IMG/VR virus record: IMGVR_UViG_2541047739_000010
Strand: one strand, 5' to 3'
Length of the DNA stretch: 4,121 nucleotides
From: a virus
Taxonomy: Duplodnaviria > Heunggongvirae > Uroviricota > Caudoviricetes
A program made the position numbers and the translations under genes. This document shows positions 1-4,121 of this stretch, one piece after another. Numbering within the stretch: position 1 is the stretch's first letter; the number at the start of each line of letters is the position of its first letter. The notes under the pieces are model-generated. The model saw only the letters and a list, made by a program, of their open reading frames with translations, was not told where the DNA came from and searched no databases.

Positions 1-84
1 ATGGCGGGTTATTTGTCCTGGTTATTCCCCCGTTGTAAAATCTCACCTAAACTTAACGGTACGGCACCACACTTCGGGGATGAA

Positions 85-276
85 ATGTTCGCGCTGGTAC
101 TTTTTGTTTGCTACCTGGATGGCGGTTGTGAAGATATTGTTGTGGATGTCTACAACACGGAACAGCAGTGTCTTTATTCTATGAGCGATCAACGGATCCG
201 CCATGGCGGTTGTTTTCCGATTGAGGATTTTATAGATGGTTTCTGGCGACCTGCACAGGAATACGGTGATTTTTAA
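85..276 (+). CDS. yebW: Small conserved protein YebW (63 aa). The frame is open from window position 1, but the start is most likely the internal ATG at 85.
   Basis: The translation from the ATG at 85 (MFALVLFVCYLDGGCEDIVVDVYNTEQQCLYSMSDQRIRHGGCFPIEDFIDGFWRPAQEYGDF) matches E. coli YebW as I remember it. A GGGGA Shine-Dalgarno sits at 76-80, 4 nt upstream of that ATG, and the stop is TAA at 274-276. The gene lies next to pphA as in E. coli K-12. The upstream part of the frame cannot be judged because the window starts at 1. Confidence 0.7.
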   Translation: MFALVLFVCYLDGGCEDIVVDVYNTEQQCLYSMSDQRIRHGGCFPIEDFIDGFWRPAQEYGDF

Positions 277-933
277 TTATTGCAATTGCACAAGAGTCAG
301 TTCGCCCCCAAAGACAGCACCGGTATCAATATAATGCAGGTTGCCAATATCCACGCGATGGCGCAACGGTGTATGACCAAACCAGAAATGATCAGCACCT
401 GTAATTCCCTGCCCTTTTTGGCGTTCACCTAATCGCGAGCGGCTCCACAAGACCTGATGCAAATCAACGTCCTTTTGCCATTCATAAACATCATCCGGAT
501 AATCGGCATGGGCAATAACATGTTTGCCGGTGCGACTGTGTACTTCAAGAATAAAGGGCAAATACTGACATTTTTCCAGCGCCGTTTTCGCTTGTTTCTG
601 TTGATAATCTGCCAGCGCAATAAACCAGTCGCCGCCATTCATCAACCATAAAGACATCTGCCGGGATACCAGCGCATCCATCGCCATCTGTTCATGATTG
701 CCTCTTACCGCACGAACCCAATGTTGTTCCAGTAACTGCAGGCAACGTAAACTTTGCGGCCCACGATCGATAACGTCTCCCACTGAGATAAGTAAATCTC
801 GCCACGGATCAAAACGACAATGCCATAATTTGCGGCGCAACTGCTCAAGACAACCGTGTATATCGCCTGAAAGCCAGATATGTCGCCATTGATGACCCGC
901 AATTCTCTGATAAACGGGCGCAGGCTGTTTCAT
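277..933 (-). CDS. pphA: Serine/threonine protein phosphatase 1 (calcineurin-like metallophosphoesterase, PP-lambda family), 218 aa.
   Basis: The translation MKQPAPVYQRIAGHQWRHIWLSGDIHG... carries the metallophosphoesterase signature motifs GDIHG, GDVIDRG and GNHE in the canonical order and matches E. coli PrpA/PphA from memory. The six-frame ORF begins one codon earlier at a TTG (936); the ATG at 933-931 with a GGAGG about 9 nt upstream is the likely true start. The stop codon directly abuts the yebW stop. Confidence 0.93.
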   Translation of the reverse strand: MKQPAPVYQRIAGHQWRHIWLSGDIHGCLEQLRRKLWHCRFDPWRDLLISVGDVIDRGPQSLRCLQLLEQHWVRAVRGNHEQMAMDALVSRQMSLWLMNGGDWFIALADYQQKQAKTALEKCQYLPFILEVHSRTGKHVIAHADYPDDVYEWQKDVDLHQVLWSRSRLGERQKGQGITGADHFWFGHTPLRHRVDIGNLHYIDTGAVFGGELTLVQLQ

Positions 934-1067
934 CAATATTTTCCTCCCGCGCTAAAGATCACATAATCTTAACAAGAATGTTAAAAAACGCTGGACTCAG
1001 ACAGTAGAGTGTGTGTTATGGTTGACTATAAAGTCAGCGAAGGGAATGCTTCTGGCTTTTAACAGAT

Positions 1068-1098
1068 AAAAAGAGACCGAACACGATTCCTGTTTTCG
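1068..1098 (-). ncRNA. sdsR: 3'-terminal remnant of the sRNA SdsR (RyeB): terminator stem-loop plus U-tract only, no promoter or body. Interpreted as the att core copy at the prophage-host junction.
   Basis: The plus strand reads AAAAAGAGACCGAAcACGATTCCTGTtTTCG, which is about 29 of 31 identical to the reverse complement of the SdsR 3' end as I recall it (...CGAAUACAGGAAUCGUAUUCGGUCUCUUUUU). Similarity ends abruptly at 1098/1099: the remaining ~70 nt of sdsR are absent and replaced by AT-rich sequence. The position about 130 bp from the pphA start fits the K-12 pphA-ryeA/sdsR-yebY order. The comparison is from memory, not a search. Confidence 0.55.
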
Positions 1099-1279: not shown

Positions 1280-1309
1280 TTGAATAATTCCGTAGCAATT
1301 ATGTAAAAT
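1280..1309 (+). promoter_or_regulatory. Candidate sigma70-type promoter: -35 TTGAAT (1280-1285), 18-nt spacer, -10 TAAAAT (1304-1309).
   Basis: This is a sequence-motif match only. The -10 keeps the critical TAnnnT positions and is preceded by TG. The predicted start near 1316-1318 coincides with the 5' arm of a stem that is followed by a Rho-independent terminator. Confidence 0.3.
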
Positions 1310-1316
1310 CATCTCC

Positions 1317-1400
1317 GGCTGATTTTCATTCAAACTCGCGCTATCGAACGTCCATCAGCCAGCCGCAGTATCCTGTCATGACAAGTTACTGCGGCTTTTT
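1317..1400 (+). ncRNA. Candidate ~85-nt structured small RNA in the prophage end region (hypothetical).
   Basis: Stem-loop 1 pairs GGCTGAT (1317-1323) with ATCAGCC (1354-1360) around a ~30-nt loop. It is followed directly by a 9-bp GC-rich terminator hairpin (1362-1395) and a T-tract (1396-1400), with the candidate promoter just upstream. No ORF of meaningful length lies in the interval. Confidence 0.3.
1362..1400 (+). terminator. Rho-independent terminator for plus-strand transcription; possibly weakly bidirectional.
   Basis: A perfect 9-bp stem, GCCGCAGTA (1362-1370) with TACTGCGGC (1387-1395), encloses a loop containing the palindrome TGTCATGACA and is followed by TTTTT (1396-1400). On the minus strand the hairpin is preceded by an A/T-rich tract but not followed by a U-tract, so it should work mainly for the plus strand. 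It lies 12 nt from the stop of the 95-aa gene. Confidence 0.6.
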
Positions 1401-1708: not shown

Positions 1709-1987
1709 TTAAAACCACTCCCTGAGCGGGCGCTCTGGTGTAACCACCCACTCACGGAACACGGAATCATCAAATCCATCGTCAAGAAGACGGATATTAA
1801 CAAAGTACCCTTCGTTTCGCGTGTATTCTGGTTCTCCGTCATCAGAAACATCTGTCTCCCTGAACGTAAAACCAATCTCATCAACCAGAACGGCATTCTG
1901 CAGCTCTTCGTCCTCTTCCCAGTTAAGTTTCCTGAGAAATGCCCTGAAATCTGCTTTATCACTGAAACGCAACGTGAAATCTCTCAC
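1709..1987 (-). CDS. Hypothetical acidic protein (92 aa) translationally coupled to the tail fiber gene; possible non-canonical tail fiber chaperone or accessory protein.
   Basis: The GTG start at 1987-1985 overlaps the tail fiber TGA stop (1986-1984) as GTGA; there is no internal Met. Composition is protein-like and rich in Asp/Glu, whereas the overlapping 118-aa ORF in another frame is Arg-rich junk. It shows no resemblance to lambda Tfa as I recall it. Confidence 0.6.
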   Translation of the reverse strand: MRDFTLRFSDKADFRAFLRKLNWEEDEELQNAVLVDEIGFTFRETDVSDDGEPEYTRNEGYFVNIRLLDDGFDDSVFREWVVTPERPLREWF

Positions 1988-4053
1988 TCCACAACCTCCC
2001 CAAGCTGCGCATCTGTTAGCTCTTTATGCCAGAGACGAAAATTCCTCACATGCCCAAATAAATGGCGTAATCCTGCTGTAGTTTGTCCACCAATGCGAAT
2101 GGTTGCTGTACTCCGGATATATTCCCATGTGGTTTTTGTTTCGCTGGATATACGCCCGTTACTTACTGCACATGTAGACTGATCTGACTTTACACGCATC
2201 CCCATAACCATTTTTTTCAACGATGCGTTTTCGTTAACACGCCTATTTGATCCACCAATATCGCAATAAGGAAATCCGTCTGGCCCATCTGCCGAAGATC
2301 CGAAGCCAAGAATAATAGCCGCTCCGGTTTGATGACCGCCGGTATCAAAAACACGTGGCGCTGCATTTGGCGTTTTATACCAGTTCTTATGTACCTCACA
2401 AAGAACCGTAAAAGGAAGATTATAAAGATTATTCTTAATCGGAACTGTAACCATATCGCTTGCCCGCGTTACCGGTGCCGTCCCCGTAACAATAAAAGAT
2501 GATGCGCCTGTACCAGCCTCAATCTGTGGAGTGGTTACATCGAGATAATCCCCTGATGCAACCATCTGCCCTGTATCCGGAGAATACTGGACAAAACCAC
2601 CAACCGTATTTTCTGTTGTATCTGCTTTTAATGTAGCCTCAAAAAATATCCAGCCAGTTGCATCATCCTTAACAGACCTTGCTGTAACACGGCTTGTCTG
2701 ACCTGTCTTGCTAATTATGCGGGTGGTAAGGTTCAGGTTTGCTGCTCCTATTGATGTCCTTACCTCCCCATCATAATGTTCAAATAAAATACGAACGGCG
2801 ATATTATCAACTTCACTTTTTACCCGACAGGATATAGTTACATGCTTTTCGTCCCCTGAAGTATCAACCCCTCCGGTACTCGAATACAGTCCGATAATGG
2901 TATGCGCTTTACTTGTACCAACAATCGAATCCTGTACGACAAACCGGCCATAATTAAACCCGAAACTATCTGTGCCTGTTTCTGTAACGTCCAGTGAAGT
3001 TGACTTATTCCACTTCGAAGGGTCTGTACTGTTCGGGAAGAAGTTCGTTCTTTGCCCCTCAATAAGCAGGCCATCACACTCAAATCGTGGCTCATTAATT
3101 TCCGCCGTTTTCAGTTCGCCAGATTTGTTGATATATGTTGCCGTTGATGCGCGACTGAAATTAACCTGTTTATCACTGGCAACCTGAACCACATTATCAC
3201 CAATCTTCACTTTTTTATAACCCGGAGAATAGCCCGTAATCATATCCAGCGAATCATTAAAGGGTATCCACACATCCGGCAGCGGCTGTAAAACATATCT
3301 GTACGGCTCTGCTGTCTGGTTTGCGTATTCTCTGGCAGCATCTTCACTTGCTTTTGCTGCCGTCTGGCTTGCTGCCGATGCTTTCGCCGAGTTCGCCGCC
3401 GCTGTTTCGCTCACCTTTGCGTTGGCTTCACTGTCTTTGGCATTCGTCTCACTGGTTTTCGCTGCCGTCTGGCTGGATTTTGCGTTTTTTTCGCTGGCCT
3501 TTGTGGCTGTCTCGCTATTTTTCGCGCTGGTTTCTGATTTTTTGGCTGCTGTCGCGGAGTTTGCCGATGCAGTCTGCGAGGCCGCTGCCGCCTGTGCGCT
3601 GTTAGCTGCATTCGTTTCTGAGGTTTTCGCCGCGTTCTTCGATGATGCCGCTGCAGTTTCGGATTTCTTTGCTGCCGCTGCGCTCTGTGATGATGCTCCG
3701 GCATGACGTGCCACTTCATTCACCATCAGCTCAAAACGGCGCAGTGCCTCCGGACGAACATCATCCTCCGTCATGGCACCGAGAAAATCATTCAGCGTAC
3801 CTGGTCTGGAACCTTCATAGACGGTAATGGTCCCAACATGTGATGGCTGAGAACCCTCAATCCACAGGATGACGCTGTACTGACCATACTCAACGTCCAT
3901 ACTGTAACGCCCGGCTTCATCCGGATTTTCAGAGGCCACCGTGTTCACCAGTACCGTGGTGCTGTTACGCTTTGCCTTCAGTTGAATAGTGCAGTTCTGT
4001 ATTGGTTTTCCCGCACCATCTTTCAGCACACCTGAGATTTTTACTGCTGCCAT
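1984..4053 (-). CDS. stf: Lambdoid side tail fiber protein (Stf family), about 689 aa, mosaic: conserved N-terminal domain, Ala/Ser/Thr-rich SETNA-type repeats, and a divergent C-terminal receptor-binding region that probably ends in a LamG/ConA-like jelly-roll domain.
   Basis: The N-terminus MAAVKISGVLKDGAGKPIQNCTIQLKAKRNSTTVLVNTVASENPDEAGRYSMDVEYGQYSVIL... is nearly identical to the lambda Stf N-terminus from memory. The repeat region (KKSETAA, KTSETNA, KNSETAT...) resembles the lambda Stf repeats. The C-terminal end, GHVRNFRLWHKELTDAQLGE, resembles the characteristic end of laminin-G-like domains. The six-frame ORF starts at a GTG (4059); the ATG at 4053-4051 with a GGAG 5 nt upstream is preferred. 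Confidence 0.9.
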   Translation of the reverse strand: MAAVKISGVLKDGAGKPIQNCTIQLKAKRNSTTVLVNTVASENPDEAGRYSMDVEYGQYSVILWIEGSQPSHVGTITVYEGSRPGTLNDFLGAMTEDDVRPEALRRFELMVNEVARHAGASSQSAAAAKKSETAAASSKNAAKTSETNAANSAQAAAASQTASANSATAAKKSETSAKNSETATKASEKNAKSSQTAAKTSETNAKDSEANAKVSETAAANSAKASAASQTAAKASEDAAREYANQTAEPYRYVLQPLPDVWIPFNDSLDMITGYSPGYKKVKIGDNVVQVASDKQVNFSRASTATYINKSGELKTAEINEPRFECDGLLIEGQRTNFFPNSTDPSKWNKSTSLDVTETGTDSFGFNYGRFVVQDSIVGTSKAHTIIGLYSSTGGVDTSGDEKHVTISCRVKSEVDNIAVRILFEHYDGEVRTSIGAANLNLTTRIISKTGQTSRVTARSVKDDATGWIFFEATLKADTTENTVGGFVQYSPDTGQMVASGDYLDVTTPQIEAGTGASSFIVTGTAPVTRASDMVTVPIKNNLYNLPFTVLCEVHKNWYKTPNAAPRVFDTGGHQTGAAIILGFGSSADGPDGFPYCDIGGSNRRVNENASLKKMVMGMRVKSDQSTCAVSNGRISSETKTTWEYIRSTATIRIGGQTTAGLRHLFGHVRNFRLWHKELTDAQLGEVVE
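3320..3700 (-). repeat. Intragenic imperfect tandem repeats encoding the Ala/Ser/Thr-rich fibrous shaft of the tail fiber.
   Basis: Repeated DNA motifs occur here, for example GCTGCCGTCTGGCT at roughly 3356-3369 and 3461-3474, together with repeated TTTCGCTGG-type units. This produces the cluster of spurious overlapping ORFs at 3321-3719 and corresponds to the protein repeats of the KxSETNA type. Confidence 0.5.
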
Positions 4054-4064
4054 ATCCACTCCAC

Positions 4065-4090
4065 AAAAAAGCCCGCCTGAACCGGCGGGC
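4065..4090 (-). terminator. Rho-independent terminator on the minus strand, immediately upstream of the tail fiber start.
   Basis: A perfect 7-bp GC stem, GCCCGCC (4071-4077) with GGCGGGC (4084-4090), encloses a 6-nt loop. The A-tract at 4065-4070 on the plus strand is a U-tract after the hairpin on the minus-strand transcript. It lies between the end of the upstream (unseen) gene and the stf ribosome-binding site. Confidence 0.55.
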
Positions 4091-4121
4091 TGTCATAACA
4101 CTGTGTTACCTGGCTAATCAG

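Follow-up and report, generated by a model that had tools for sequence, protein, structure and literature searches.

Does the non-coding end of a lambdoid prophage carry a small RNA (sRNA) gene of its own? The question is raised by 4,121 nucleotides (nt) of viral DNA (Caudoviricetes; IMG/VR record IMGVR_UViG_2541047739_000010), referred to below as the window, by which the whole stretch analyzed is meant. An original prediction, made from the letters alone, had placed a compact sRNA unit with its own promoter and terminator on the plus strand of the window at positions 1280–1400. The element at this site is a real, conserved structured non-coding RNA module. As a kind it is familiar, namely a phage-borne small structured RNA or 3′ element; we could find no existing annotation or description of this one, even in lambda.

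Signals and folds of the element

The module is about 100 nt long and begins at a TAAAAT hexamer, the window copy being 1303–1400. The hexamer (1304–1309, plus strand) was delimited by its conservation in 102 distinct sequences, forms the 5′ edge of the module and fits the -10 signature (TAnnnT). Upstream of it, a promoter scan returned a -35-like hexamer, TTGAAT (1280–1285, plus strand), that is specific to this context and lies outside the conserved module. Together (TTGAAT-18-TAAAAT, 1280–1309) the two match the promoter consensus at 9 of 12 positions, and the sigma70-like signal was found where it had been described, at a level that taken alone equals chance, the scan having returned 6 such sites in the window and 6.6 ± 2.8 in shuffles.

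Hairpin 1 (1317–1360, plus strand) was also recovered as described: a 7-bp stem, stem 1, in which GGCTGAT (1317–1323) pairs with ATCAGCC (1354–1360) around a 30-nt loop (-10.5 kcal/mol, z = -2.3). Across the family its highly conserved interior measures 30–33 nt and holds an inner near-palindrome (TTCAATA/TATCGAA), which is 1 nt shorter in the window copy. Hairpin 2 occupies 1361–1396 (-18.8 kcal/mol on the plus strand, z = -5.4) and is followed by TTTTT at 1396–1400 and then by ACTTTTT. With a stable hairpin and a U-tract, plus-strand 1361–1400 has the make-up of an intrinsic terminator, and the strong terminator that had been claimed is present; it was overlooked by a simple terminator scan because the loop rule of that scan was 3–8 nt. 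Folded as a whole, the unit at 1310–1400 reached -29.8 kcal/mol (z = -5.5), and none of 200 shuffled sequences was equally stable.

The unit is non-coding. It lies between the attachment (att) core of the prophage (1068–1098) and the stop of a minus-strand open reading frame (ORF) of 95 amino acids (1412–1699), and its end is 11 nt short of that stop codon. The predicted arrangement, a non-coding unit in the prophage arm converging on the 3′ end of a membrane-protein gene, was thus seen in the window, and convergence is on the 3′ end only. The suggestion of an RNA antitoxin was not upheld: the unit does not reach into the coding part of the 95-amino-acid gene or its 5′ end, and the genes downstream of the common family members are unrelated.

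Covariation and conservation

Homologues were collected by BLAST and pattern scans; pattern matches were filtered by full-length similarity, and chance matches and lambda DNA contamination were removed. The resulting 102 distinct sequences were aligned, and base pairs were counted for stem 1 and hairpin 2 on a structure supplied by hand, because RNAalifold run on the raw alignment overlooked stem 1. Paired cells made up 89.6% of the total, against 27–59% when the partners were slid. Two-sided changes were observed in 14 of the 19 pairs over both stems, covariation was present in 4 of the 7 stem 1 pairs, and 148 cells were compensated compared with 35.5 ± 7.3 in shuffles, none of which (0/500) reached 148. 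The stem 1 variants include GGCTGAT/ATCAGCC, GGCTGAC/GTCAGCC, GGCTGG/CCAGCC and GACTGGC/GCCAGTC. Conservation of the stem among related prophages, on which the original prediction had partly staked itself, is borne out. That the signals exceed chance follows from these features being conserved and covarying among more than 100 distinct homologues.

Hairpin 1 has a nearly invariant interior, TCATTCAATACTCGCACTATCGAA. Some of this invariance is ascertainment, as the retrieval pattern lay inside the interior. When hairpin 2 served as the anchor of a second retrieval, 150 matches were obtained; of their 54 distinct upstream variants, only 13 departed from the loop pattern. One of these (L214) was an unrelated chance match, one had lost the 5′ half, and the others differed by 1–3 substitutions.

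A second long hairpin stands 0–1 nt after hairpin 1. It occurs in at least two unrelated sequence types, the common one with a conserved TCTTGCATACG loop. The hairpin 2 of the window belongs to a minority type ('ORF95-type') that is always linked to a homologue of the 95-amino-acid gene, and BLAST identity to O26-type prophages ends at 1366, within a shared AGCCGC. From this stop and this linkage the window unit is read as a mosaic of the conserved left half and the terminator region of the neighboring gene. The compact unit of the original prediction is structured and conserved, but the hairpin of its terminator is a mosaic piece of separate origin, which accompanies the 95-amino-acid gene and folds more stably on the minus strand.

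Many copies could also pair the start of hairpin 2 (ACCG, GGC) with the spacer that follows the hexamer (CGGT.., or GCC in the Citrobacter type); the stretches involved are alignment columns 18–24 and 72–76, corresponding to 1310–1316 and 1361–1365 of the window. This pairing may be an alternative structure that extends stem 1 at the cost of hairpin 2, although family members do not show it consistently and the window copy shows it weakly.

The conserved hexamer

The hexamer is the best-conserved flank of the module and is kept amid unrelated upstream contexts; in alignments from seven contexts, homology set in within 1–3 nt of it (window 1304) in every case. It reads TAAAAT in 63 of the aligned sequences, TACAAT in 19, TAGAAT in 7, CAAAAT in 6 and TATAAT in 1, the remainder being two sequences without a hexamer, one with a 1-nt deletion and three other TAnnnT-type single variants. 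The spacer between hexamer and stem 1 is 7 nt in 102/102. T1, A2 and T6 are kept and position 3 is variable, and fixed T1, A2 and T6 with a free position 3 are the signature of a sigma70 -10 element. As a complement read as a U-tract, such a pattern fits poorly. A TTG-type -35 at 16–18 nt was found in the window/yodB-type context, in the Citrobacter-type context and in two further sequence-distinct contexts (L135, L117); the hexamers comparable to that of the window in some of the other upstream contexts read TTGAAC, TTGATT and TTGCxx.

Distribution and genomic contexts

The element was detected in at least 905 of 5426 complete E. coli genomes, in at least 120 IMG/VR viral contigs and in 201 phage records, and its carriers include lambda, HK97, phi80, mEp460 and many phages encoding Shiga toxin (Stx1/Stx2). 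Among prophages at the sdsR site it was present in O26, O111, O103 and O157 strains and in mouse isolates; further occupied sites were dusA, yodB, sitD and lambda attB. Sakai prophage Sp14 was without the element, and the Sakai pphA-yebY locus was empty. With one genome per species, genuine copies were confined to Escherichia, Shigella, Citrobacter and Pantoea. Exact lambda copies also appeared in low-coverage or short contigs of Streptomyces, Enterococcus, Vibrio and Pseudoxanthomonas and in metagenome-assembled genomes (L142, L146, L150, L155, L158, L161 and about 15 more), for which contamination with lambda DNA is the likeliest explanation.

The element always occupies the place where the rightward late tail-fibre arm ends against leftward early transcription (int, a dinI paralogue, or the ea genes in lambda), and its orientation is in every case that of int and dinI. 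In 57 of 117 distinct contexts a co-oriented DinI-family ORF ends just upstream. In phi80, mEp460 and Sakai Sp15 the element lies a few bases past the stop of such a gene; in phi80 this is dinL, which it follows directly and which has an annotated LexA box, annotated in phi80 only. In HK97, and likewise in a prophage that occupies lambda attB (L014), the element starts one base past sib/tI (annotated in HK97). The lambda copy, at approximately 24,160–24,260 between ea31 and ea47, is unannotated in both GenBank records; it sits within the co-directional gene string from ea31 to ea47 and has no U-tract. On the other side, the downstream minus-strand genes are wholly different between copies, while the plus-strand partners, dinI and int, recur.

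Type III effector genes (nleG7, espJ, tccP) are found past the element and att arm of other prophages in place of the 95-amino-acid gene (L002 3989–4639; L141 1911–2564), which marks the boundary of the element as a point of cargo exchange. The Prokaryotic Genome Annotation Pipeline of RefSeq placed short minus-strand 'capsid protein' and 'nucleocapsid protein' pseudogenes over the element in two loci (L011 2490–2570; L014 2499–2600); these are probably spurious protein-similarity calls on non-coding DNA. Rfam IS009 (RF02111) matches were located 0.1–1 kb from the element in two prophage contigs (L025 169–367; L064 508–711), one of them above the gathering score.

Host locus and prophage insertion

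The window matched E. coli chromosomes at 100% identity by BLAST. In K-12 the gene order is pphA, the overlapping sRNA genes ryeA (plus) and sdsR (minus), then yebY. In the matching genome, a lambdoid prophage of about 45 kb lies between yebY and pphA and contains int-xis, recET, a repressor region, lysis, head and tail genes, J, lom and the tail fibre. The window begins on the host side with yebW (1–276, plus strand) and with pphA, the host gene beside the insertion (serine/threonine phosphatase 1; 277–936, minus strand; Pfam Metallophos and RefSeq annotation of an identical locus).

K-12 sequence is retained through the RyeA promoter (about 995–1029, identical to K-12 in an alignment by eye), the RyeA start (1030) and the sdsR 3′ end (1068), and diverges after ...ACGATTCCTGT at 1093; the crossover was located within about 1084–1093. 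By-eye alignment with K-12 ryeA (b4432) and sdsR (b4433) delimits a ryeA 5′ fragment at 1030–1093 (plus strand), and a weak Rfam SraC_RyeA match covers 1064–1184. The att core (1068–1098) is identified as the displaced 3′ terminator half of sdsR, since the same 26-nt core recurs at the opposite, int end of the prophage, beside an intact sdsR with a phage-derived terminator. Read from these junctions (window 995–1098; L005 3990–4100), SdsR is rebuilt with a terminator from the phage, and RyeA is split, being cut after about 64 nt with its promoter now aimed into the prophage.

The AT-rich stretch from 1094 to about 1281 was assigned to the phage attP arm on the basis of TTTCGGGAA-type repeats in the reconstructed attP, with one copy at 1231–1239 and two tandem copies beside int. 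Such a layout is usual for arm-type integrase sites, and contiguity of int, attP and arm is present in a phage genome record. On the circular phage map, int, attP, arm and element follow one another in the same orientation. The first intrinsic terminator met downstream of int is hairpin 2, whose 3′ end lies about 470 nt past the int stop. An exact 11-nt copy of the attB-type core, ATTCCTGTATT, stands at 1271–1281, 180 bp from the core, and overlaps the putative -35; this copy may be a secondary core-type site or have arisen by chance. Record PP818812.1 ('Actinobacillus phage vB_Apl-pPE4', L009) carries an integrase, an attP core equal to the E. coli sdsR 3′ end and the element at 84% identity; this combination is unusual for an Actinobacillus host and points to a phage of the Escherichia type.

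Beyond the element, the 95-amino-acid ORF (minus strand) encodes a predicted membrane protein of PHROG 1443 (function unknown) and is the last gene of the late/tail-fibre arm. It is followed by a phage gene of 92 amino acids (1709–1987, minus strand) and by the tail-fibre gene (1984–4059, minus strand, Pfam phage_tail_N). Past its conserved N-terminal domain, the tail-fibre protein has a long, repetitive Ala/Ser/Lys/Glu/Thr-rich segment with KxSETxA-like repeats (3380–3700, minus strand), which gives rise to long spurious ORFs in other frames. A clean intrinsic terminator with an 8-bp stem, 7 G-C pairs and a T-run (4070–4091, minus strand) lies just upstream of the tail-fibre gene and after the lom-like gene of the late arm.

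Comparison with known RNAs

In Rfam 15 no family reached its gathering score on the element, in the window and nine homologous loci searched at E ≤ 1; the only match was an antisense, sub-threshold CssrB hairpin. The model of CssrB (RF02799, Shigella) ends as the reverse complement of the common hairpin 2, and its matches scored 30–37 bits against a gathering score of 76, over the terminal hairpin only. EcOnc47, a minus-strand peak in Sakai Sp15 from cross-linking and analysis of cDNA (CRAC) with Hfq, overlaps the Sp15 copy (NC_002695.2, 2,896,542–2,896,639) or lies within about 70 nt of it, a register that is uncertain because the source study used an older assembly version; the peak was without Northern validation in that study. 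Both RNAs are located on the strand opposite the element, in its DNA or close to it. A literature search for the sequence of the element found nothing.

In its short unit, conserved lambdoid position and terminator hairpin, the element resembles the Hfq-binding sRNAs of prophages (AgvB, AsxR, Esr41, StxS, HnrS, PasA–D, PreS/LPR1 and DicF), and it resembles them also in its neighbors, which are variable cargo or effector genes such as nleG. As to identity with known RNAs, AgvB, AsxR, Esr41, STnc100 and others gave no Rfam match, the probe sequences of PasA, PasB and PasC were absent from the element (PasD was not compared), PreS/LPR1 lies elsewhere in lambda, between ea10 and ral, and EcOnc22, EcOnc23 and EcOnc24 are located between J and I. 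HnrS was judged unlikely by distribution only, being described as restricted to enterohaemorrhagic and enteropathogenic E. coli and within late genes; its sequence was not compared.

The put RNAs of HK022, a phage that has no N, are pairs of stem-loops separated by about 1 nt and placed directly behind a promoter-like element; the put sites are situated shortly downstream of PL and PR. The element shares the paired stem-loops and the promoter-like element; unlike put, it lies in the b region and is present in lambda, which uses N.

The closest functional precedent is DinR, an Hfq-dependent sRNA that is cut from the Klebsiella dinI mRNA at its 3′ end and represses ftsZ; it comes from the chromosomal dinI, is released by an RNase E cut within the coding sequence and pairs with ftsZ through a Klebsiella-specific stretch (PMC10907235). 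The analogy is one of arrangement: about half of the family stands directly 3′ of a co-oriented DinI-family gene, as a structured 3′ region that ends in the terminator of the gene and has a conserved stretch upstream of that terminator. The partner differs, being a prophage paralogue and not the chromosomal dinI, and the 3′ end of the K-12 chromosomal dinI is unrelated to the element. A location in the 3′ untranslated region of a LexA-controlled dinI, which is seen in the 57 DinI-family contexts, with an annotated LexA box in phi80 only, does not apply to the window copy, whose prophage has lost dinI and which has none upstream.

Proposed transcription and function of the element

Our favored reading, held at a probability of about 0.45, is that of a structured RNA module at the meeting point of early and late transcription, which gives rise to a plus-strand RNA that ends at hairpin 2 and has an active interior, while hairpin 2 caps the transcripts converging on it. 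The plus strand would be transcribed from a weak-to-moderate sigma70 promoter of its own (TTGAAT-18-TAAAAT here), from upstream genes in other phages, or from both. In the lysogen of the window, the intact host RyeA promoter 290 nt upstream would be an additional source. Since no strong plus-strand terminator lies between the RyeA start and hairpin 2 (1361–1400), a RyeA′-phage chimeric RNA of about 370 nt is predicted, in which RyeA transcription would run through the att core and arm into the element. Plus-strand transcription would stop at hairpin 2 and its U-tract, and this would leave either a short stable RNA, about 85 nt in length, or a longer transcript with this structure at its 3′ end, akin to the 3′-end-type sRNA DinR. 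The conserved interior of hairpin 1 would be the functional part, through base pairing or protein binding, and hairpin 2 would also cap converging minus-strand transcripts. Where transcription starts and stops, that the RNA is stable and that it has any function in trans are points that we infer from conserved signals and folds.

Several observations weigh against this reading. Most copies are without a -35, which is absent (2/6 matches) after the E. coli-type dinI, the commonest context, after the HK97 sib and in lambda. About half have a weak or missing U-tract, at least five T within 8 nt after hairpin 2 being found in only about half of the sequences. The sRNA with its own promoter that had been proposed is plausible: the conserved TAnnnT hexamer and the -35 and U-tract of the window agree with it, and the -35 and U-tract each occur in only part of the family. 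The original prediction did not mention the attP arm just upstream, the host RyeA promoter that is predicted to read into the unit, or the breadth of the family, lambda included. No plus-strand RNA has been reported at the site in lambda RNA interaction mapping by ligation and sequencing (RIL-seq) or in the Sakai Hfq-CRAC list. The lambda study, which combined RIL-seq with Northern blots, described three Hfq-bound lambda sRNAs, none of them at 24.2 kb. The only published RNAs at the site, CssrB and EcOnc47, are minus-strand. In a target search that covered the 50-kb prophage and the translation start region of ftsZ, no complementarity exceeded shuffled controls.

The folds themselves are divided between the strands. 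The common hairpin 2 favors the plus strand, with 103 G.U against 30 A.C cells and greater stability on plus in 61 of 92 sequences. The hairpin 1 region folds 6.8 kcal/mol better on minus, and minus is favored in 100 of 102 sequences, because the inner 7-bp near-palindrome has A.C on plus where it has G.U on minus. Among inner-helix variants free of retrieval bias, compatibility with wobble pairing is confined to minus in two and to plus in one, and two become perfect on both strands. The window hairpin 2 reaches -22.5 kcal/mol on minus compared with -18.8 on plus, its wobble pairs falling on the minus strand. The minus-oriented parts of this record also count against the favored reading; taken with the minus-strand CssrB and EcOnc47, the conflicting signals indicate that the locus is probably transcribed from both sides.

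The main rival, a purely cis-acting boundary in which the hairpins only terminate and 3′-protect converging transcripts (int, dinI and RyeA read-through on plus, late or moron transcripts on minus) with no separate RNA and no function in trans, is rather unlikely as the full account, although much of the evidence agrees with it. The element is always at a convergence point and is the only terminator of dinI in the dinI phages; the end of the CssrB model coincides exactly with hairpin 2 in reverse complement; the window hairpin 2 is tied to the 95-amino-acid gene and is the more stable on its strand; and the U-tract and -35 vary. A terminator, however, needs neither a 30-nt interior that is near-invariant from E. 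coli to Pantoea nor a fixed TAnnnT hexamer 7 nt upstream. It would be redundant in HK97-type phages, where a complete tI/sib terminator directly precedes the element; the lambda copy lies inside the co-directional ea31 to ea47 string without a U-tract.

A wider form of the favored reading is offered tentatively, and we consider it improbable as it stands. The element would belong to an unrecognized family of lambdoid regulatory RNAs, lambda included, which was ancestrally the 3′ module of SOS-inducible prophage dinI paralogues. It would be produced by its own -10-driven promoter, by processing or by both, and its invariant interior would act on a protein or on a target in host or phage, and would thereby couple DNA-damage signaling or prophage state to host physiology.

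Distinctly less probable is a functional RNA on the minus strand, as a structured 3′ end or 3′-derived sRNA of late or moron transcripts, for which the plus-strand 'promoter' would be the complement of a U-rich tail (GAUUUUAC). The stability of the hairpin 1 region, the two independent G-to-A inner-helix variants that are wobble-compatible only on minus, the wobble pairs of the window hairpin 2 and the strand of CssrB and EcOnc47 all agree with it. Against these stand the plus-strand bias of the common hairpin 2 and the tail variants GAUUGUAC and GAUUCUAC, which break the U-tract yet stay good plus-strand -10 hexamers. The U-run is 8–9 nt past the stem and not adjacent to it, and the minus-strand genes differ completely between copies where the plus-strand dinI and int recur.

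Retroregulation of int in the manner of sib/tI, in which the element would terminate pI transcripts, supply an RNase III site on read-through pL transcripts and be separated from int in the prophage, is very unlikely. In the circular map the element resembles lambda sib/tI in lying beyond attP from int, co-oriented and as the first terminator. Its sequence is unrelated to lambda sib, a homologue of which was thereby rejected, and about half of the copies follow dinI with no intervening attP. Authentic sib/tI and the element stand side by side in HK97 and in the lambda-attB prophage, and an element that starts one base past sib/tI is not a substitute for it. A DNA-level site (a protein-binding near-palindrome, TTCAATA-N7-TATCGAA, or a recombination linker at a mosaic boundary, sharp module edges and mosaic breakpoints being seen at about 1303 and about 1366) or a small ORF, of which one runs through the element, is hardly credible, as compensatory changes and wobble-pair bias in both stems point to selection on RNA folding and the frame is shifted by 1-nt indels among homologues and has no start codon in the dinI contexts.

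Significance

Were the element only a two-way terminator, the finding would be an ordinary one. If it gives rise to a functional RNA, then an unannotated regulatory RNA is common to lambda, HK97, phi80 and many Stx and other prophages, located where the integration/SOS module adjoins the tail-fibre/cargo module. Exchange of effector and moron genes takes place at this junction, so the element may also mark a recombination-prone boundary. RyeA is the reported antitoxin or sponge of SdsR; at the locus of the window the prophage splits this pair, and truncation of RyeA, with its predicted fusion to the phage element, could alter the reported antitoxin-toxin balance between RyeA and SdsR.

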